Source: Burkholderiales bacterium
Lineage (GTDB): Bacteria; Pseudomonadota; Gammaproteobacteria; Burkholderiales; SG8-39
Length of the DNA: 34,292 nt
NCBI GenBank assembly: GCA_046263015.1
Contig: JBHELS010000251.1
Span: forward strand, 1-34,292
Direction of reading: 5' to 3'
The notes beneath the pieces were generated by a model. That model was not told the origin of the DNA, searched no databases, and saw only the letters and a list, made by a program, of their open reading frames with translations. The position numbers and the translations under genes were made by a program. Position 1 is the first letter of the stretch; the number at the start of each line of letters is the position of its first letter. Shown here piece by piece: positions 10,429-29,515 of the stretch.

Positions 10429-12302
<1,874 letters not shown>

Positions 12303-12303
<1 letters not shown>

Positions 12304-12476
12304 TGCTGGCGGGCATCGTCGTCCCGACCTGCGCGTTCTTCGCCGCAACCTATTTCATCCGGCGCTGGATGAACGCGAACGACATCCCGAAGGGCATCGC
12401 GCGTGGTATGGCGGTCTTCACACTCGCGCTTGCCGTCTCTTATGTCGTCGGCTGGCTCGTCGGGCAGATTTCGTAG
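12303..12476 (+). CDS. 57-aa two-helix membrane protein, function unknown
   Basis: ATG 12303 overlaps the exporter stop (TGATG). MLAGIVVPTCAFFAATYFI...GMAVFTLALAVSYVVGWLVG gives two hydrophobic spans. GC-rich third positions. Confidence 0.5.
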
Positions 12477-12523
12477 CTAAGTAACGAAATAATTACGCGC
12501 CTCTCCCCCGATTTCGGCGCGGT

Positions 12524-12555
12524 TGTCAGGCACCGAACTGCAGCGCGTTGCCTGA
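12524..12555 (+). repeat. Direct repeat copy B (32 nt), intergenic; forms a 9-bp hairpin TGTCAGGCA/TGCCTGACA
   Basis: TGTCAGGCACCGAACTGCAGCGCGTTGCCTGA followed by CA. The stem is perfect here but weakened in copy A. Confidence 0.85.
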
Positions 12556-12562
12556 CAGCAGG

Positions 12563-12581
12563 ATTACGTACTTAGTACCGA
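12563..12581 (+). repeat. REP-like element, copy 1 (2 mismatches to ATTACGTACTTGGTACGGA)
   Basis: ATTACGTACTTAGTACCGA. It directly abuts the TAA stop (12582-12584, minus strand) of the Bug gene. Confidence 0.6.
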
Positions 12582-13541
12582 TTATTCCAGCCGGATATTC
12601 GCCGCCTTGATGATGCTCGCGTAGCGTTCCTGCTCGCGGGCGAGGAAGCCGGCCATTTCATCCGGCGAGCTCGGCGCGGGATCGAGGCCGAGGCTCGCGA
12701 GGCGTTCCCGCATGTCGGATTGCTGAAGAATGCGGTGCATCTCGGACGATAAGCGCTGCAGCACCTCGCGCGGCGTGCCGGCGGGCGCCGCGTAGCCAAT
12801 CCAGGCGGCGGCATCGAAGCCTTTGAGATCGGTCGTTTCTGCGATCGGCGGCACGTCGGGCATCGCCACCGTGCGCTTCGCGCTCGACACGCCGAGCGCC
12901 TTCAGGCGTCCGGACTTCACATGCGGCAGCGTCGCGGCGATGGTTTCCATGGTGTAGGTGATCTGCCCGTTGATGATGTCGGTAATCGCGGGTGCCGTGC
13001 CCTTGTAGGGCACATGGCGCGCCTTGATGCCCGCCGTATGGTTGAAGAGCTCGGCGAAGAGATGCGCGGTTGCACCGGTGCCCGAAGAGGAGAACGTATA
13101 TTTGTCCGGGTTGGCACGCAGCTCGGCGATGAACTCGCGCGCGTTATTCGCCGGGAACGAAGGATTGGTGACGAGCACGTAAGCATTGCGGCAGATGAGG
13201 CTGATCGGCGCGAGGTCCTTCAGCGGATCGTAGGTGAGCTTCTGCAGCGAAGGCATGATCGACACCGGGCCGCTCGACGCCGCGAGCAGCGTGTAGCCGT
13301 CGGCCGCGCTCTTCACCACCGCATCCGTGCCGATCGAGCCACCGGCACCGGGCTTGTTGTCGACCACGAAGGGCTGACCGAGCGCCTGCTGCAGCTTATC
13401 CGCCACCACGCGCGCCGCGATATCGGTGGCCTGTCCCGGCGGCCAGGGCACGATCACCTTCACCGGCCGATTTGGATAAGTCTGCGCCGCTGCCGCGGCA
13501 GACACGACCAGCCATAGGACGGCGAACGAAATGCGAAGCAT
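12582..13541 (-). CDS. Bug/TctC-family substrate-binding protein
   Basis: Internal ATG 13541 of ORF 12582..13697, with GAGGAGG upstream. Signal peptide MLRISFAVLWLVVSAAAAAQ. YPNRPVKVIVPWPPGQATD. DNKPGAGG. Confidence 0.9.
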   Translation of the reverse strand: MLRISFAVLWLVVSAAAAAQTYPNRPVKVIVPWPPGQATDIAARVVADKLQQALGQPFVVDNKPGAGGSIGTDAVVKSAADGYTLLAASSGPVSIMPSLQKLTYDPLKDLAPISLICRNAYVLVTNPSFPANNAREFIAELRANPDKYTFSSSGTGATAHLFAELFNHTAGIKARHVPYKGTAPAITDIINGQITYTMETIAATLPHVKSGRLKALGVSSAKRTVAMPDVPPIAETTDLKGFDAAAWIGYAAPAGTPREVLQRLSSEMHRILQQSDMRERLASLGLDPAPSSPDEMAGFLAREQERYASIIKAANIRLE

Positions 13542-22943: not shown

Positions 22944-23564
22944 ATGATCGATATCTACGCCGCCGGCACGTCGAATGGCATGCGCGCGCGCATCGCCCTC
23001 GAAGAGTGCGGCCTCAAATACAACTGGCATCCGATCGACCTCGCGAAGGGCGAGCACAAGACGCCGCAGTTCCTCGCGCTGAACCCCATGGGGCAGATCC
23101 CGGTGATCGTCGATAACGAAGGCCCACGCGGAACGAAAGTCACACTCGCGCAGTCGAGCGCCATCATGGTGTACTGCGCCGAGAAAGCGGGCAGATTCAT
23201 TCCCAACGACGCGGGCAAGCGCGCCGCGATGTGGGAGGCGTACATGAGCGCCTCGACCGATATCACGCCGGGATTCGGCTCGGTGAACGCCTGCCTGCGC
23301 GCCAAGGATCCCGCGCCCTATGCCGCGGCGGGCGAGATGTTCAAGCAGCGGCTAAAGGGCTACTTCAAGGTCTGGGACGACTTCCTCGGCAAACGAAAAT
23401 ATGCCGCGGGCGAAGAGCTCACCATCGCCGACCTCTCGCTCTACGCGGGCTACTGGCGCACCAAAGGGGCGCTGCCCGACCTCGTCGAAAGCATGCCGAA
23501 CTTGGCCCGTTGGGGCGGCGAAATCGCCGCGCGGCCCGGCATCCAGCGCGCGACCAAAATCTAA
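22944..23564 (+). CDS. Glutathione S-transferase
   Basis: ATG 22944 after GGAGGAAG. N-terminal thioredoxin-like part (NPMGQIPVIVD, LAQSSAIMVY) and C-terminal helical domain. The long upstream extension of ORF 22506..23564 is rejected. Confidence 0.85.
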   Translation: MIDIYAAGTSNGMRARIALEECGLKYNWHPIDLAKGEHKTPQFLALNPMGQIPVIVDNEGPRGTKVTLAQSSAIMVYCAEKAGRFIPNDAGKRAAMWEAYMSASTDITPGFGSVNACLRAKDPAPYAAAGEMFKQRLKGYFKVWDDFLGKRKYAAGEELTIADLSLYAGYWRTKGALPDLVESMPNLARWGGEIAARPGIQRATKI

Positions 23565-23583
23565 TCCGTACCAAGTACGTAAT
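23565..23583 (-). repeat. REP-like element, copy 2 (perfect), directly after the GST stop codon
   Basis: TCCGTACCAAGTACGTAAT on the + strand. 23561-23585 is the exact reverse complement of 24646-24670. An extra partial duplication AAGTACGTAC follows at 23584-23593. Confidence 0.8.
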
Positions 23584-23845
23584 AAGTACGTACTCGAACA
23601 GCGACCGGCAAAGACGCCGTCAATGGGGCGGGGCCTTCGGCACGCTCGTCCTCCTCATCGCCATCGGCGTCGCCGGCTACTACGCGTACAAATACTTCGT
23701 CGAAGCCGAGGAGCAACCGAGTTGCAAAGCCCAGCTCAACCGCTGCATCGCGAACTGCCGCAAGACGACTTCCGAAGCGCCGCAGGCGCAAGCCTGCCAG
23801 GAAGCCTGCGAGCGCGATGCCGATGCGTGCGAACGCAAGCGCTGA
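23582..23845 (+). pseudogene. Start-less coding remnant: TM helix + Cys-rich tail
   Basis: The frame of ORF 23231..23845 reads ...RRRQWGGAFGTLVLLIAIGVAGYYAYKYFVEAEEQPSCKAQLNRCIANCRKTTSEAPQAQACQEACERDADACERKR, with GC-rich third positions. There is no ATG, GTG or TTG between REP copy 2 and the TM helix. Confidence 0.45.
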
Positions 23846-23851
23846 CCGGAT

Positions 23852-23870
23852 TCCGTACCAAGTACGTAAT
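23852..23870 (-). repeat. REP-like element, copy 3 (perfect), left flank of the RAYT gene
   Basis: TCCGTACCAAGTACGTAAT. It overlaps the RAYT stop codon (23870-23872) by 1 nt. Confidence 0.8.
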
Positions 23871-24601
23871 TATTCTGTAAGCAAAACGAGCTGCCCGGGC
23901 TCACGCTCGGCGGCGGCGTTACGTTGCGCGGGTCGTCCGGCCTTGGCGCGCCCAAGCCGCGCTCCGTCTTTCTCGAGCTCGGCCTTCAAGCGCTCGCCCG
24001 CAAGCGCATAGCCGCAATCGGTCGCTTCGCGGAGTTGCGAAACGAACTCGGTTTCATCATCGCCGGCCACCAGCTCGCCGTAGGCACGTAGCCGCGTGCG
24101 TCGCTCAAGGCCGAGCGCCAGATACTCCGGATGCGGCGTGAGTAGCTCATCGATGCGAATGCCCGCGTTGCCGGAATAACTGGACCACGGGTACGCGTCA
24201 GGGGACTCCACCATGCGCGCACGCACCGGATTGCGCTCGATGTAGCGGTAACAGGCGATGACGTAATCCGCCGACTCCACCAGACACGACCTGAACGGAT
24301 GCTGCCAGAGCGCGCCGCTCATGCCGTAGCGGCGATTGAAGTAGGTGGCGTAGGCGCGCCCGAGATCGCGCATCAGCAGTGCACAGCCCTCGCTCTCGGA
24401 CGCGGTTAAGAGCAGATGCACATGGTTCGTCATGAGGCAATAGGCATGCACGGCGCACCGGCGGTGGCGCGAGCACTCGCGCAGCATCGACAAGTAAACG
24501 AGCCGGTCGTTGTCGTGCCGGAAGGTGTTCTGCCGGTTGTTGCCGCGCTGGCGCACATGCAGCGCCACCTCGGGCACGATCAGCCTCGAATGCCTCCCCA
24601 T
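23870..24601 (-). CDS. REP-associated tyrosine transposase (RAYT; IS200/IS605 TnpA-like Y1 HUH enzyme)
   Basis: ORF 23870..24628, starting at ATG 24601 or 24628. N-terminus HVRQRGNNRQNTF. HUH motif in CLMTNHVHLLL. Catalytic Tyr motif ACYRYIERNPVRARM. Confidence 0.88.
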   Translation of the reverse strand: MGRHSRLIVPEVALHVRQRGNNRQNTFRHDNDRLVYLSMLRECSRHRRCAVHAYCLMTNHVHLLLTASESEGCALLMRDLGRAYATYFNRRYGMSGALWQHPFRSCLVESADYVIACYRYIERNPVRARMVESPDAYPWSSYSGNAGIRIDELLTPHPEYLALGLERRTRLRAYGELVAGDDETEFVSQLREATDCGYALAGERLKAELEKDGARLGRAKAGRPAQRNAAAEREPGQLVLLTE

Positions 24602-24647
24602 GCCGGCATAACGGCGCAGCCGGCACATCGGTTGACGACAAAAAGTT

Positions 24648-24666
24648 ATTACGTACTTGGTACGGA
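24648..24666 (+). repeat. REP-like element, copy 4 (perfect), right flank of the RAYT gene
   Basis: ATTACGTACTTGGTACGGA. It directly abuts the TAA stop (24667-24669, minus strand) of the ParB-like gene. Confidence 0.8.
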
Positions 24667-25656
24667 TTAGTCTTCGTCGGGCGCGCCGCCCGAGGCGACG
24701 ATGTCTTCCTGCTTCACCTTGTCGACGTTGAAGCGCTCGACCTTGCTGCGAATGGTGTTGATGAGATCGTCGAGCTCAGGCGCCTCTTTCATGAAGCGCA
24801 GGGGATTCGAGCGCGCGATGACGAACGACTTGAGATACGGGCTGACAAATCCCTTGGCCTTCAGCTTCTTCACCACCTCGTTCACGCGCTCATCGAGCTC
24901 GAGCAGCTTCTCCGATCTTTTCTCGTGGGCGCGCAGCGCTTTCGAAAGTGGCTCGTCCGTGAATTCGGTGAGGCGGCGCACGAAGGAGTGGTAGACGGCG
25001 CCGCTGAAGCGCGGACTTTTCTCGTAGCAAAGGCCCATTGTCACGAACGACGCTTCCTCCAGATAGAAGGAGACGTCCTTCTCCGTCTTCTGCGGATCCT
25101 CGTCGATCAGGCTGCGGTAGATGCGGATCACCTCGAGTGACTTGTCGCGCAGGTTGTGCGCCTTCTCGGTGTTGAGCGCGAGGATCTGCCACGCGATCTC
25201 GCGCTTCGGTACGACCAGCGCCGTGATCGCTTTCGCGCCGAGCCGCCGCATGGCTTCCAGGCGATGGCGCCCGTTCGGCGTCCAGAACCCTTTCTCCGGC
25301 GCGGTGACGGCGATGATCGGATCGAGGAACATGCCGGTGCGGTCAAGCACATCGGCGAGCCGCCGGTGATGCGCTTGCGAAAGATCGCGTTGAAACGGCG
25401 TTGGCTCGATCGCATCGATCGGCAACACGGCGGCGATCACCGGCTGTCTTCCGAGCGGGTCGTGATAGCAGCCGAGCACAAAGCCGCCTTCGTTTTCGAT
25501 GCGCGTTTTGACTTCGTTCGCATCGCCCGCGAGCGTATCGAGTCGACATTCACCGGCGCTCAAGCCGCGCGAGAGCGCCTTTGCTTTGCGCGGACGACGG
25601 CGCGGCGCGGCGCGCTTGAGCGCGCTCCTGCGGGCCGCGGGTTTAGCAGTGCCCAT
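24667..25656 (-). CDS. ParB/Srx-fold (ParB N-terminal domain) protein with basic N-terminal tail
   Basis: ORF 24667..25758. The start is uncertain (ATG 25656, 25674 or 25680). LPIDAIEPTPFQRDLSQAHHRRL and TPNGRHRLEAMRRLGAKAI are ParB/sulfiredoxin-type motifs. N-terminal tail AKPAARRSALKRAAPRRRPRKAK. Confidence 0.75.
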   Translation of the reverse strand: MGTAKPAARRSALKRAAPRRRPRKAKALSRGLSAGECRLDTLAGDANEVKTRIENEGGFVLGCYHDPLGRQPVIAAVLPIDAIEPTPFQRDLSQAHHRRLADVLDRTGMFLDPIIAVTAPEKGFWTPNGRHRLEAMRRLGAKAITALVVPKREIAWQILALNTEKAHNLRDKSLEVIRIYRSLIDEDPQKTEKDVSFYLEEASFVTMGLCYEKSPRFSGAVYHSFVRRLTEFTDEPLSKALRAHEKRSEKLLELDERVNEVVKKLKAKGFVSPYLKSFVIARSNPLRFMKEAPELDDLINTIRSKVERFNVDKVKQEDIVASGGAPDED

Positions 25657-25672
25657 GTGTATAAACGGAAGC

Positions 25673-25900
25673 ATGAGCATACCCACGCTGGAACGCAAAC
25701 GCTTCATGGTAGGCAAGTACGAGATCATTGCGCAGCCCGTTCCGAACTCCGCGCACATGCTTTGCTACAACGTATTCGTCGATGGCAACCGCATCGGTGC
25801 TCTTCTTTCGATGCCCACCGAATCCGATTGCCGGTTTCTCGAGAACCCGCCGCCGGTGCCCGGCCGGCCGAAGAAAAACCTGCCTTCGTCGAATCCCTAG
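25673..25900 (+). CDS. 75-aa hypothetical protein, divergent from the ParB-like gene
   Basis: ATG 25673 within ORF 25499..25900. MSIPTLERKRFMVGKYEIIAQPVPNSAHMLCYNVFVDGNRIGALLSMPTESDCRFLENPPPVPGRPKKNLPSSNP. Mostly G/C third positions. Weak GGAAG upstream. Confidence 0.45.
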   Translation: MSIPTLERKRFMVGKYEIIAQPVPNSAHMLCYNVFVDGNRIGALLSMPTESDCRFLENPPPVPGRPKKNLPSSNP

Positions 25901-25944
25901 TCGCTATTGTCGGCCCGCGCAGGGGCTCGCGGCTTCGAGCGAGT

Positions 25945-25963
25945 ATTACGTACTTGGTATGGA
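25945..25963 (+). repeat. REP-like element, copy 5 (1 mismatch)
   Basis: ATTACGTACTTGGTATGGA. It lies 9 nt from the pqiB-like stop codon (25973-25975). Confidence 0.7.
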
Positions 25964-25972
25964 TTTAGAGTC

Positions 25973-26839
25973 TTACTTCTCGGCCGGCAGGGGAATCTTC
26001 GGCGCCCAGCCGAGCCACTCCTTCTTCGGCTGATCGTAGAGGAAGAAGACGGTGCCGGGCTTCGCTCGCGCGGTGCCGGGCGGGGTTGCGAACTCGATGC
26101 CGCCGGTGATGAAGGAGCGCAGCGACTCGAGCTCGATCTGGATGCCCTTCAAGAGGCCCGCATTGACGTTGAGCCCGCTCACGTCCCAGAAGGACGAGCC
26201 CTCGCGAACCAGCGCCGCGAAGCGCGGAAAGATGACCACGTGCACGTCCGCCGAGAGCGCGTTCGGCGCAAGGTCGATCTTCTGCACCACGCCCACCTCG
26301 ACGCCGCGGTAATACACCGGCGCGTCGGCGCGCATTTTCGGATGCTCGGCGCGCAGCACGATCCTGAGACCGCCTTCGATGCTCGAAGGCGGCGTCTCGA
26401 GGCCGGTGAACTCGCTTTGCAGCGGCGCGCCCTCTTTCCCCGGAATCACGCTGATCTCGGGGCCGGAGAGCACCGTCGCGAGTCCCGTCACCTGACCGAA
26501 CCCGACGCGCGGTCGCACGATCCAGAACTGGCTGCCCTCGCGCGCCATGCCCTCGCCCGACTTCGTGAGCCGGATGCGGATCACCGCGTGCTTTTCATCC
26601 TTGGCGAGGGTCACGCCGGTCACCTCGCCCACCTGCACGCCGCGATAACGCACCGCCGTCTGCCCGGCGCGCAAGCCCGCGCCGTCGTTGAACGTGACAT
26701 AGATCTGCGGCCCATAGTCCTGCCAGCGATTGAAGATCAGGTAGGCCGCGACCGCGAGCGCCATCACGGGCACGATCCACACCAGGCGCAATACGCGCCG
26801 GCGCCGCACTCTCGCCTTCGGCAGGTCTTCGCCCGTCAT
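25973..26839 (-). CDS. PqiB/MlaD-family MCE-domain protein (two MCE domains)
   Basis: 288 aa. N-terminal TM LRLVWIVPVMALAVAAYLIF. Two MCE-like units (VRYRGVQVGEVTGV..., VYYRGVEVGVVQKI...). Its start overlaps the pqiA-like stop (ATGA). Confidence 0.85.
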   Translation of the reverse strand: MTGEDLPKARVRRRRVLRLVWIVPVMALAVAAYLIFNRWQDYGPQIYVTFNDGAGLRAGQTAVRYRGVQVGEVTGVTLAKDEKHAVIRIRLTKSGEGMAREGSQFWIVRPRVGFGQVTGLATVLSGPEISVIPGKEGAPLQSEFTGLETPPSSIEGGLRIVLRAEHPKMRADAPVYYRGVEVGVVQKIDLAPNALSADVHVVIFPRFAALVREGSSFWDVSGLNVNAGLLKGIQIELESLRSFITGGIEFATPPGTARAKPGTVFFLYDQPKKEWLGWAPKIPLPAEK

Positions 26840-27447
26840 CGCTCTCTATTCCAGATGAGCTTCGGGTCGAAGCTCTGTGAGGCAAGCATCGTCAGCACCA
26901 CGACGCAGGTGAAGGCGAGCAGCCCCGGGCCGGGTATCACCCGTCCCAGGTCGCCGAGCTTGACGAGCGCGACGAGCACCGCGAGGAGGAAGACATCGAG
27001 CATCGCCCACGGCCCGATGGCGTCGATGAACTTGTAGATGTGCGTGCGTCCGCGCAGGCGCCGGCCGCGGCCCCACTTGGCGCTCGCCACGAGAAACAGG
27101 AGCCCCAGGAGCTTGAAGAGCGGCACGACGATGCTCGCGAGGAACACCACCGCCGCGACGAAATACTCGTTGTATTGCATAAGGCTCACGACGCCGTCCC
27201 AGATGGTGTTCTCCGAGTACGTGCCGTAGATATTCATCATCAGGATCGGATAGATGTTCGCGGGCACATAAAGGACGAGCGCGGCGAGGGTCAGCGCAAG
27301 GGTAACGTCCGGCCCGCTCGCGGGCCGCTCCGTAATGGTCGACCCGCAGCGGATGCACTCCGCGCTCGTGCCCGGCGCCAGATCCGCCACCGCCTGCGCG
27401 AGGCCGCAGGTCTCGCACGCAAGGATGGTATCCGCGGTCTCGGCCAT
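26836..27447 (-). CDS. Paraquat-inducible protein A (PqiA) family, single-repeat half-size form
   Basis: 203 aa. Zinc-ribbon CETCG...CIRCG followed by four hydrophobic spans. This is half the length of the E. coli two-repeat PqiA. Confidence 0.85.
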   Translation of the reverse strand: MAETADTILACETCGLAQAVADLAPGTSAECIRCGSTITERPASGPDVTLALTLAALVLYVPANIYPILMMNIYGTYSENTIWDGVVSLMQYNEYFVAAVVFLASIVVPLFKLLGLLFLVASAKWGRGRRLRGRTHIYKFIDAIGPWAMLDVFLLAVLVALVKLGDLGRVIPGPGLLAFTCVVVLTMLASQSFDPKLIWNRER

Positions 27448-27522: not shown

Positions 27523-28110
27523 ATGCTCCGTTTGCTCGTTCTTGTCGCGGCCTTGCTACTTGGCGGCTGCGGCTACAACCAGATCCAGTCCTCCGACGAG
27601 CAGGTGAAGGGGGCATGGTCCGAGGTGGTCAACCAGTACCAGCGCCGCGCCGACCTGATCCCGAACCTGGTGAACACCGTGAAAGGGTTTGCCCAGCAGG
27701 AAAAGGACGTGTTCATCGGCGTCACCGAGGCGCGTGCCAAGGCGACCTCGGTGCAGGTGACGCCGCAGACGGTGGACGACCCCGAGGCTTTCCAGCGCTT
27801 CGTGCAGGCACAGCGCGAGGTCACCGGCGCCCTTTCGCGCCTCCTCGCCGTGGCCGAGAACTACCCGCAGATCAAGTCCGACGCCAACTTCCGCGAGCTG
27901 CAGGCGCAGCTCGAAGGCACCGAGAACCGCATCGCGGTCGCACGCCAGCGGTTCATCAAGTCGACGCAGGAGTACAACACCCTCGTACGGCAATTCCCCA
28001 CAAACCTCACGGCGATGGCCTTCGGCTACAAGCCGAAGCCGCAGTTCACCGTCGAGGACGAGAAAGCGATCGCCAAGCCCCCGACGGTCGACTTCGGCAC
28101 CAAGAAATGA
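27523..28110 (+). CDS. lemA: LemA family protein
   Basis: ATG 27523 (GTG 27511 is possible). Lipobox/anchor LLLGGCGYNQIQ. VKGAWSEVVNQYQRRADLIPNLVNTVKG is the LemA signature region. Confidence 0.9.
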   Translation: MLRLLVLVAALLLGGCGYNQIQSSDEQVKGAWSEVVNQYQRRADLIPNLVNTVKGFAQQEKDVFIGVTEARAKATSVQVTPQTVDDPEAFQRFVQAQREVTGALSRLLAVAENYPQIKSDANFRELQAQLEGTENRIAVARQRFIKSTQEYNTLVRQFPTNLTAMAFGYKPKPQFTVEDEKAIAKPPTVDFGTKK

Positions 28111-29033
28111 TTTCGCTTTGCCCCCCTGTTAAGGGGGGCGTGAGCCGCAGGCGAACGGGGGGTTTTGCTTTCCTGCTTCTCCTCTCGCTCTTCATCTCGT
28201 TCATGGCGCGGGCCGCTGATATTCCACCGCTCAAGGCGCGCGTCACCGACCTCACCAGCACGCTTTCGGGCGAGCAGCGCTCGGCGCTCGAGCAGACCCT
28301 CGCGGAGTTCGAGCGTCGCAAAGGCGCGCAGCTCGTCGTCCTCATGGTCGCGAGCACCACGCCCGAGACGGTCGAGCAATACGCCGTGCGCGTCGAGGAA
28401 GCGTGGAAGCTCGGCCGCAAAGGCGTCGACGATAGTCTTCTGCTGGTCATCGCGAAGAACGACCGTCGCCTGCATATCGAAGTGGGCTACGGCCTCGAGG
28501 GCGTGGTGCCCGACGCGGTGGCAAAGCGCGTGATCGAGGACGACATCGTGCCGCGCTTTCGCCAGAACGATTACTACGGCGGCATCCGCGCCGGCATGGA
28601 TCGGCTGATGCGTTTGGTCGAGGGCGAGAAGCTGCCGCCGCCGATTGCGCGCAACGCTCATCCGCACGACGAGCGCCTGCCGCTCGAGTGGCTGCTGCCG
28701 CTTGCGTTCCTCGCGCTCTTCTTCGGCAGGGCGCTGCGCGCGCTCTTCGGCCATGCGGCCGGCGCGAGCGTGACGGGCGCGCTTGCCGGCGTCCTCGGTT
28801 GGGCGATCTTCGGCACGCTCGTGGCGGCCATTGCGCTCGCGGTGCTCGGCCTCTTTCTGGGCCTCGTCACGGGCGCCGTGCCCTCCAGCCGCCGGCGCTT
28901 CGGCGGCGGCTGGTCTTCGGGCGGCTTCGGCGGCTGGGGCGGCGGCTTCGGCGGCGGCGGCTTCGGGGGCGGGGGCGGCTTCGGTGGCGGCGGCGGCTCT
29001 TCCGGCGGCGGCGGCGCGAGCGGATCGTGGTGA
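28107..29033 (+). CDS. TPM-domain protein (YgcG-like) with TM segments and Gly/Phe-rich tail
   Basis: ATG 28107 overlaps the LemA stop (ATGA). VTDLTSTLSGEQRSALEQTLAEFERRKGAQLVV...RRLHIEVGYGLEG is a TPM domain. C-terminal tail GGFGGWGGGFGGGGFGGGGGFGGGGG. Confidence 0.85.
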   Translation: MISLCPPVKGGVSRRRTGGFAFLLLLSLFISFMARAADIPPLKARVTDLTSTLSGEQRSALEQTLAEFERRKGAQLVVLMVASTTPETVEQYAVRVEEAWKLGRKGVDDSLLLVIAKNDRRLHIEVGYGLEGVVPDAVAKRVIEDDIVPRFRQNDYYGGIRAGMDRLMRLVEGEKLPPPIARNAHPHDERLPLEWLLPLAFLALFFGRALRALFGHAAGASVTGALAGVLGWAIFGTLVAAIALAVLGLFLGLVTGAVPSSRRRFGGGWSSGGFGGWGGGFGGGGFGGGGGFGGGGGSSGGGGASGSW

Positions 29034-29515
29034 GGCGCGCTCTAAAGCATCTCTTCACGCCGAGCTGGCTCACGCAGCGGCCGTTCGGCGCGGCGACCTT
29101 GCGCGCGATCGAGCGCGCGATCGAGGACTCGGAGCGGCGCCACCGCGGCGAAATCCGCTTCGCCATCGAGGGGCCGCTGCATCCCGCGCACCTGCGCCTC
29201 TCGCCGCGCAGCCGCGCGCGCCAAGTGTTCTCGCTCCTCGAAGTCTGGGACACCGAGGAGAACACCGGCGTCCTCCTCTATGTCCAGCTGGTCGATCGCG
29301 CGATCGAGATCGTCGCCGACCGCGGCATCGCCCAGCGCGTGCCGCAAGCCGACTGGGAGCACATCTGCCGTGCGATGGAGCGCGCTTTCAAGGCGCGCCA
29401 ATACGAGGAAGGCGCGCTCGGCGCGATCTCGGCCGTGACCGAGATCCTGGCGCGCGAGTTTCCCGCCGGCGCCGCGAATCCGAACGAGTTGCCCGATAAG
29501 CCGGCCCTCCTATGA
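29030..29515 (+). CDS. TPM-domain protein (second, cytoplasmic-type)
   Basis: GTG 29030 (or 29027) overlaps the previous stop (GTGA). ERRHRGEIRFAIEG...NTGVLLYVQLVDRAIEIVADRGI. Confidence 0.75.
   Translation: MRRALKHLFTPSWLTQRPFGAATLRAIERAIEDSERRHRGEIRFAIEGPLHPAHLRLSPRSRARQVFSLLEVWDTEENTGVLLYVQLVDRAIEIVADRGIAQRVPQADWEHICRAMERAFKARQYEEGALGAISAVTEILAREFPAGAANPNELPDKPALL

Follow-up and report, generated by a model that had tools for sequence, protein, structure and literature searches.

Our analysis makes it likely that positions 23561 to 25965 of a contig from a Burkholderiales metagenome-assembled genome (MAG) hold a REPtron/TIRtron, with a group 1-type repetitive extragenic palindrome (REP)-associated tyrosine transposase (RAYT) seated among resident chromosomal genes, and not a cargo-carrying mobile cassette. 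The contig (JBHELS010000251.1, assembly GCA_046263015.1) was analysed over all of its 34,292 nucleotides and is referred to here as the window. On this account a single domesticated HUH-Y1 gene would occupy the gap between the convergent 3' ends of two resident genes, one encoding a ParB-like protein and the other a small transmembrane, cysteine-rich protein (TM/Cys), and it would have on either side a copy of its cognate 22-28 nt imperfect palindrome, the two copies being inverted to each other. The outer copies would be separate, lineage-specific copies of the same dispersed repeat which settled downstream of a glutathione S-transferase gene (GST) and downstream of pqiB, and the genes lying between inner and outer copies would be long established in the chromosome. 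By analogy with E. coli TnpA-REP the RAYT would nick and rejoin repeat hairpins on single-stranded DNA (ssDNA) and spread them, and if it acted preferentially close to where it is encoded, the local accumulation of repeats would be accounted for. Gaps filled with such repeats would be fragile, and in relatives they coincide with the presence or absence of the RAYT, with replacement of the RAYT and its repeat, with erosion of small open reading frames (ORFs) and with kb-sized inversions.

Synteny supports this reading. We compared 80 metagenome loci encoding relatives of the ParB-like protein, together with three contigs from a genome scan (two of the MAG SMAG_U11817, plus one designated L007 under the L-numbering used here for related loci), all annotated with the window's proteins. 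With the ParB-like gene taken as plus, the usual order is LemA (-), pqiA (+), pqiB (+), a 75-codon ORF termed o75 (-), ParB-like (+), the RAYT where present (+), TM/Cys (-), GST (-) and, further along, an epoxide hydrolase (+). At least one of GST, pqiA, pqiB, LemA and the epoxide hydrolase lies beside the ParB-like gene in 60 of the 80 loci, and a RAYT is present in only 17. Thirty informative loci have a ParB-like identity of 78% or more; in these, ParB-like is followed downstream by the RAYT in 12, by the TM/Cys gene directly in nine, by GST in four, by a flipped TM/Cys gene in three and by a major facilitator superfamily (MFS) transporter in one, with none of the searched genes in the remaining one. 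At least nine loci without a RAYT (L078, L040, L043, L044, L045, L046, L039, L062 and L064) keep the order pqiA-pqiB-o75-ParB-like-TM/Cys-GST, and one of these, L046, carries the complete series with no repeat in any of its three gaps. Linkage of the ParB-like gene to GST, pqiB or the epoxide hydrolase holds down to 65% identity, where the RAYT is almost absent. The ParB-like gene is more widely distributed and more stably linked than the RAYT, and therefore the RAYT is the variable element at this locus and its neighbours are the fixed ones.

A single close relative on a long contig, L078 (ParB-like protein 91% identical, flanking proteins about 85-94%), shows what has varied. It is collinear with window positions 28500-24672 and 23832-22001 and is missing only 23833-24671, which corresponds to the inner repeat copy C, the RAYT and the inner repeat copy B. 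In L043, L046 and L078 the convergent stop codons are 0-15 nt apart and the sequence between them is free of repeats. GST does occur immediately next to pqiB in a more distant clade (L066, L067, L072, L074, L077 and L088), with the ParB-like gene on the other side of GST; this adjacency is a reshuffled neighbourhood and not an empty site.

Within 23561-25965 there are four copies of the repeat, which has the core ATTACGTACTTGGTACGGA and takes the form (a)ATAATTACGTAC-TTG-GTACGGAATT, a 22-28 nt imperfect palindrome. Copies A (23561-23585) and B (23849-23870) are on the minus strand and copies C (24646-24670) and D (25945-25965) on the plus strand. REP B, which has a conserved 5' flank CTTACAGAATA (23849-23881 with the flank included), and REP C, upstream of the RAYT, are inverted to each other and flank the HUH-Y1 gene. 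REP A overlaps the GST stop codon (C-TAA-TCCGTACC...) and REP C that of the ParB-like gene, and REP D lies 7 nt from the pqiB stop, with one stem mismatch (GTATG) and a weak hairpin. An earlier reading of the letters without database searches, which we call the sequence-only reading, had described these copies with the inner pair framing the RAYT, and our own analysis bore this out for A to D and for a fifth, diverged copy at 12563-12584 (plus strand). It had also recognised 23561-23585 and 24646-24670 as exact 25-nt reverse complements, which they are, and none of 100 dinucleotide shuffles gave any such match. Allowing up to two mismatches, the 13-nt core occurs six times in the window against 0.03 expected; the shuffles and the core count together rule out chance clustering of the repeats.

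The AATT ends of the repeat frequently overlap stop codons, for example as TAA-TCCGTAC after GST and after the ParB-like gene, and it is because of this overlap that A and C share 25 nt, each reading C-TAA-TCCGTACCAAGTACGTAATAA on the sense strand of its upstream gene. Alignment of 37 copies from the window and from contigs of related Burkholderiales MAGs gave the consensus aATAATTACGTAC-TTG-GTACGGAATT, whose 10-bp stem includes one A·G mismatch and is capped by a 3-nt loop; as ssDNA the consensus has a folding energy of -5.7 kcal/mol (z = -4.4). Under a crude gene call based on GC content at third codon positions (GC3), the GGAATT end faces the 3' end of a gene in 16 of these copies versus 3. 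The 'nested' polarity of the outer pair has a one in four probability of arising by chance, the inner pair being inverted by construction. A fixed orientation rule that would explain the nesting is not claimed, as both ends of the repeat can overlap stops and in relatives the repeat in the REP D gap points the other way. The REP cores resemble weak terminator hairpins solely through their A/T-rich tails. A search of the whole window against Rfam returned no family, and a σ70 promoter scan found none.

Adjoining copy A is a partial tandem duplication of one REP arm (AAGTACGTAAT-AAGTACGTAC; 23574-23594, plus strand), which as ssDNA forms the strongest local hairpin (-6.7 kcal/mol, z = -3.45); positions 23580-23592 within it match the core with two mismatches, and the duplication falls in repeat family D3. 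The gap between GST and TM/Cys in L041 contains a similar duplication, with TAGTACGAAATATC present twice. Such arm duplications may be footprints of repeat insertion or slippage.

The outer copies A and D do not form a conserved pair: from one relative to the next they may be missing, belong to another family or point the other way. The GST|TM/Cys gap lacks REP A in L035, L078 and L038, the closest relatives covering it, and a repeat copy sits at the equivalent position in the more distant L060; other repeat families occupy this gap in L041, L048, L045, L039, L043, L044 and L028. In the gap between pqiB and o75, where REP D lies, the main repeat is found in the opposite orientation in L007, L037 and L038 and as a doublet in L005, GGGG-type palindromes are present in L041, L047 and L078, and the gap is empty in L044, L046 and L048. 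The complete identity of A and C, taken with the absence of A in close relatives, suggests that REP A is a recent copy.

The repeat is also dispersed beyond this locus. A scan for TTACGTACTTGGTAYGGA in one genome per species located it in five soil Betaproteobacteria/Burkholderiales MAGs (SMAG_U11817, BP_20, BP_17, U1175 and U4650), with matches in unrelated taxa being single only, as chance would give. SMAG_U11817 has at least 22 copies with up to three mismatches, in 16 stretches, including six inverted doublets, arranged as in REPINs, whose members are separated by 50-75 nt. The RAYT locus itself (L028 and L005) accounts for four of these copies, and therefore the enrichment near the RAYT recurs in this genome.

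The RAYT gene itself (23870-24601, minus strand) encodes a 243-aa tyrosine transposase-like protein of the HUH-Y1 type, or one of 252 aa if translation began at an in-frame ATG at 24628. The NCBI protein on this contig (P0121) is 100% identical to it over 243 aa and begins at the downstream ATG, and exact-sequence look-ups of the 252-aa call and of the ParB-like call returned no match. Among 5.8 billion proteins the closest homologue is 74% identical. The protein matches Pfam Y1_Tnp (PF01797) at 3.2e-12 and contains the motifs TNHVHLL, LWQ (LWE in relatives), YIERNP (YIELNP in L051, L054 and L060) and PWSS, with NHVH and YIERNP invariant across 28 homologues. A helical tail spans residues 158-211; Pfam returned no family for the 110-aa C-terminal tail, hence no DnaA_C or helix-turn-helix assignment was made. 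In a Foldseek search with the AlphaFold model (pLDDT 85) the top match was 4ER8_A, E. coli TnpA-REP on a REP hairpin (E = 1.3e-7, TM(target) 0.76, 161 columns), with the IS608 and ISDra2 transposases next at E around 5e-5 to 1e-4. A phmmer search of PDB with the single sequence gave no match, and a profile of 11 orthologues weakly reached ISDra2 TnpA and E. coli TnpA-REP in alignments that match up the HuH and Y motifs. With its HUH-Y1 core, its Y---NP motif and a fold nearer to TnpA-REP than to IS200/IS605, the RAYT fits class 2 of the TnpA-Y1 proteins. No tnpB was found at the RAYT locus, and PADLOC gave no defence-system match for the RAYT, ParB-like, o75 or TM/Cys proteins.

The conserved sequence on the 5' side of the 3' repeat (CTTACAGAATAA, window 23870-23881) supplies the last RAYT codons (..LLTE*) and the stop, and in L034 (1850-1885) the RAYT ORF reads through into the repeat (..NYVLSTEFE*). 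At the other end of the gene, between the 5' REP and the RAYT start, is the motif GTCAACCG (24629-24636, minus strand), which is kept in 15 of 16 RAYT loci. In its general form, GTCAAC(C/G), it lies 10-45 nt downstream of the 5' repeat and directly before the RAYT start (L028, L034-L038, L048, L049, L051, L052, L054-L056, L060 and L093). This motif could be a promoter element, its complement containing TTGAC, an operator or a cleavage site.

Assignment within class 2 was made from the published motif table and not with that study's own hidden Markov models. Table 1 of Quentin et al. describes subclass 2.1 as proteins of about 238 aa with NHVH, W[EQ], a YIELNP-like motif, SS after the Y motif and a C-terminal extension, and the same survey equates this subclass with Bertels RAYT group 1 and with the terminal inverted repeat-associated tyrosine transposases (TIRYTs) of Di Nocera et al. 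(PMC6006769). Our RAYT fits this description, and thus TnpA-Y1 subclass 2.1, as far as such motifs can tell. Length and motifs likewise agree with the TIRtron/TIRYT systems of Di Nocera et al. 2013, whose repeat families reach moderate abundance, either singly or as dimers or clusters, and whose flanking terminal inverted repeats often contain GGGGWSAS (PMC3733652). GGGGWSAS is present in the inverted flanks of RAYTs occupying this same gap in L041, L042, L047, L049 and L093, with GGGGACAG, GGGGCCAG and ATCGGGGACAGGTACGTAATT as examples of flanks of this type, whereas the window repeat differs from those of TIRYTs in being a short self-complementary variant without the GGGG motif. Flanking 16-mers of group 1 RAYTs occur on average about 12 times per replicon (Bertels et al., PMC5581495). 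A group 1-type RAYT with tens of short palindromes, some of them in doublets, fits a 'TIRtron with a repeated family'.

The E. coli K-12 REPtron (tnpA-REP/yafM with its REP/BIME pairs; Ton-Hoang 2012, summarised in PMC6006769; 4ER8) resembles the window locus in having a single HUH-Y1 gene with inverted pairs of a genome-dispersed palindrome, and in providing the best fold match. The E. coli enzyme differs in being 165 aa long and belonging to subclass 2.2 (DHLH, YIHYNP), as against 243 aa, a helical C-terminal extension and subclass 2.1 here; E. coli REPs have a 5' GTAG, absent from the window repeat, and longer stems with bulges, and they lie right beside the gene without other genes intervening, whereas the outer copies in the window are one gene further out. 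The REPIN-RAYT systems of Pseudomonas fluorescens and Stenotrophomonas share with this locus syntenic RAYTs with different repeat classes, inverted doublets, and loss of the RAYT while repeats persist (PMC3116915, PMC3686654), and differ in that their RAYTs are of group 2/3 (subclass 2.2/2.5) and about 150 aa, with GTAG REPs in hundreds of copies as against group 1 and tens. IS200/IS605 elements (IS608, ISDra2) have in common with the window locus the catalytic fold with its HUH and Y motifs, short hairpins at both ends and a filled site without target duplication. Their ends are not mutually inverted repeats, they have multiple near-identical copies and Y---Q, and they often have a tnpB partner, in contrast to the Y---NP motif here, the lack of a second identical copy among the sequences seen, and flanks that are inverted copies of a dispersed palindrome.

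Several observations weigh against reading the locus as a REPtron/TIRtron with this RAYT and repeat as partners. The RAYT scores 67 bits on the NCBIfam model REP_Tyr_transpos (NF047646), below its cut-off of 80. The hairpins in the window are weak, the outer stems being eroded, with a 5-bp stem of -3.2 kcal/mol in C and a broken stem in D, and the consensus aATAATTACGTACTTGGTACGGAATT has no canonical RAYT-REP 5' GT[AG]G tetranucleotide on either strand. The identity of A and C over 25 nt, flanks included, fits recent copying or, equally, a functional pair. The window genome is represented by this 34-kb MAG contig, on which there are five copies, four of them local. Lastly, the survey of Quentin et al. 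reports no REP-like sequences for subclass 2.1 (PMC6006769).

A further question is whether the REP-RAYT-REP module has remained mobile. Wherever contigs cover both flanks, each of the RAYTs found in this gap across 17 related loci is bracketed by a matching pair of inverted repeats of its own, and the type of pair changes with lineage, with at least seven types counted, which gives the orthogroup/orthoswitch pattern of Pseudomonas and Stenotrophomonas (PMC3686654). It is possible, although we lean against it, that the module is still mobile or exchangeable and that different RAYT lineages repeatedly entered the same repeat-seeded gap, which would account for the patchy occurrence of the RAYT, as opposed to one ancestral gene followed by losses and repeat drift. 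Pointing to repeated entry, the ParB-like proteins of L034 and L049 are 96% identical and their RAYTs 53%, with different repeat types, and those of L051 and L054 are 95% and 62% identical respectively; RAYTs from unrelated contexts (L114-L118; DctM|SBP and DUF1501|DUF2207) nest within those of this gap in neighbour-joining analysis; sister loci exist with and without a RAYT; and the codon usage of the RAYT is atypical. Set against this, the RAYT and ParB-like trees agree in part (the window with L035 and L036, and L037/38 with L048), with a Spearman correlation of 0.41 between pairwise identities, and homologous recombination between strains could decouple a RAYT from its flanks. The doublet without a RAYT in L040 keeps the GTCAACCG motif and the 3' end of the RAYT, and for this reason resembles an in-place deletion scar, that is, a loss. 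The trees on which both sides draw are neighbour-joining trees without support values, built from metagenome fragments.

Inversions of gene segments are a second feature of this gap in relatives. The TM/Cys and pqiB flanks of L034 and L049 align to the plus strand of the window and their o75-ParB-RAYT segment to the minus strand; the inverted segment corresponds to window 23846-25972, from REP B to REP D, with a repeat doublet where TM/Cys meets o75 and a repeat where the RAYT meets pqiB. In L052, L054 and L055 a flipped TM/Cys gene stands between ParB-like and RAYT, bounded by repeats. In relatives, though not in the window, repeat pairs have thus acted as the breakpoints of local inversions; the mechanism could be the RAYT, host recombination or template switching at palindromes. 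The sequence-only reading had allowed for mobilisation or recombination of larger segments between REP ends, and of this the recombination has comparative support in the two kinds of inversion, whereas a moving cargo cassette does not.

How far the RAYT itself is responsible can be framed in two ways, neither of which we think probable. One is that kb-sized, repeat-bounded gene segments are real substrates of a group 1 RAYT, which would spread the 25-nt repeats and drive both segment inversion (L034/L049, L052/54/55) and module replacement; we give this little credence, and if it were true a 'domesticated' Y1 transposase would be an active shaper of local gene order. The other, marginally less credible still, is that the inverted repeat pairs make up a RAYT-driven inversion system, a regulated or recurrent switch of gene segments. 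The inverted B-to-D segment with repeats at both junctions and the flipped TM/Cys genes speak for such a switch, but the inversions are fixed differences between diverged lineages and not variation within a population, and short inverted palindromes can cause inversions through host recombination or replication template switching with no dedicated enzyme. We know of no Y1 HUH enzyme that inverts double-stranded segments.

The small ORFs beside the repeats show signs of erosion. The o75 gene is deleted or truncated in L036, L005, L034 and L049 and is missing between pqiB and ParB-like in L051-L055, and for TM/Cys the N-terminus is truncated in L028 and the start is gone in the window. Gaps entered by repeats often contain truncated, deleted or start-less o75 or TM/Cys genes (L036 2520-2580, L005 7470-7600, L034 1-100, L049 150-300, L028 1320-1575 and window 23585-23630).

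The gene content reported by the sequence-only reading, namely a start-less TM/Cys ORF, a ParB-like gene with a divergent 75-codon ORF, and GST and pqiB/pqiA as flanks, was as described. GST (22947-23564, plus strand) forms the left flank. The TM/Cys ORF (23630-23845, plus strand) has no ATG, GTG or TTG start; its orthologues are about 82 aa long and start with ATG or GTG in L007, L038, L046, L040, L035 and L078, and in the window the first GTG position falls at the REP A boundary and the second reads CGG. It is a resident gene that has lost its start and is probably decaying. Frameshifting from an out-of-frame ATG at 23624 was considered and rejected, since the alignment to relatives shows orthologous GTG starts that have been lost. 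The ParB N-terminal-domain protein (24667-25656, minus strand, 329 aa) matches a PHROG ParB-like family at 3.6e-5 and Pfam ParB_N weakly; it has more than 8000 homologues, the nearest 92% identical, and its AlphaFold model was of low confidence (pLDDT 59) and was not used for a fold search. The 75-codon o75 (25673-25900, plus strand), divergent from ParB-like, is a conserved small gene present in 34 of the 80 related loci. On the right flank pqiB-like (288 aa) and pqiA-like (203 aa) genes occupy 25973-27447 (minus strand). The E. coli PqiB model is matched by the former over its N-terminal half only, and the PqiA model by the latter over its C-terminal half only, and because both are full length relative to every relative this half-size form is a natural variant and not a truncation caused by repeats.

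The ParB-like gene had appeared by eye to favour A/T-ending codons, and calculation did not uphold this. GC3 comes to 0.81 for this gene and averages 0.82 ± 0.05 across 36 ORFs of the window, its codon adaptation index (CAI) is 0.671 against 0.673 ± 0.031 for 12 long genes of the window, and neither gives a sign of foreign origin; the gene appears A/T-richer only against pqiB, pqiA and LemA (GC3 0.89). The GC content of 23565-25963 is 0.622 versus 0.661 for the window. In CAI the RAYT (0.572) and the 75-codon ORF (0.547) score low, and only these two, while ParB-like is native. On synteny and native CAI together, the ParB-like gene is a conserved resident of the clade and not cargo.

These results bear on the two remaining ways of explaining the block between the outer repeats. 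The RAYT locus had been suggested as a landing pad, with ParB-like, o75 and TM/Cys recruited beside a pre-existing RAYT, and the gap does accept other DNA, as L007 (2482-3684) and L058 (1093-2082) carry an MFS transporter downstream of ParB-like in place of the RAYT; yet the ParB-like gene, with its thousands of homologues, is far wider in distribution and stabler than the RAYT, a pattern that contradicts recruitment of this kind and makes it very improbable. On the L007 contig a further ORF, of 99 aa, separates GST from the TM/Cys gene. The contig is binned as Chloroflexi but shares synteny, at about 76-80% nucleotide identity, with the Burkholderiales window, from which we take it to be probably mis-binned. 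Least likely of all is the composite mobile cassette of the sequence-only reading, refuted by synteny and composition on the terms which that reading had itself set, in which the RAYT would move the outer inverted REP pair with ParB-like and the small ORFs as cargo, for although the nested inverted geometry, the exact A/C match and the atypical codon usage of the RAYT are real, the supposed cargo stands at the same locus and in the same order in relatives that have no RAYT and, in L046, no repeats, the sole clean indel against a close relative is the inner REP-RAYT-REP module, the ParB-like codon usage is not distinct from that of the host, the A-to-D block was met in a foreign context in none of the 80 loci, the outer copies are not conserved, and REPtrons are not thought to move as a unit (PMC6006769).

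Two other regions of the window contain repeats. The fifth copy of the main repeat shares its gap, which separates two convergent genes, with remnants of several further repeat families (ATTTCGTAGCTAAGTAACGAAAT, AATTACGCGCCTCTCCCCCGAT and TGTCAGGCACCGAACTGCAGCGCGTTGCCTGACA; 12470-12590 and 12272-12303), and the TGTCAGGCACCGAAC element recurs 252 nt upstream at 94% identity, in the 3' end of the gene before it. A GGC/TTC tandem repeat with a period of 9-21 nt and GC up to 0.78 lies at 28900-29040, downstream of the LemA gene; it encodes a Gly-rich stretch and falls within a long ORF (27615-29033), in the C-terminal part, which is rich in glycine.

A RAYT that moved cargo would have extended the known roles of these proteins, and the evidence here says that it does not. 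What the locus provides instead is a natural series for one chromosomal gap in soil Burkholderiales, running from empty through a single repeat and a doublet to the full REP-RAYT-REP arrangement, which also shows lineage-specific combinations of RAYT and repeat type and repeats at the breakpoints of two kinds of local inversion. It ties a group 1/subclass 2.1-type RAYT to a short, dispersed, doublet-forming repeat, and in so doing extends the survey in which no REPs were scored for this subclass (PMC6006769), supports the older TIRYT observations and supplies candidates for biochemistry.

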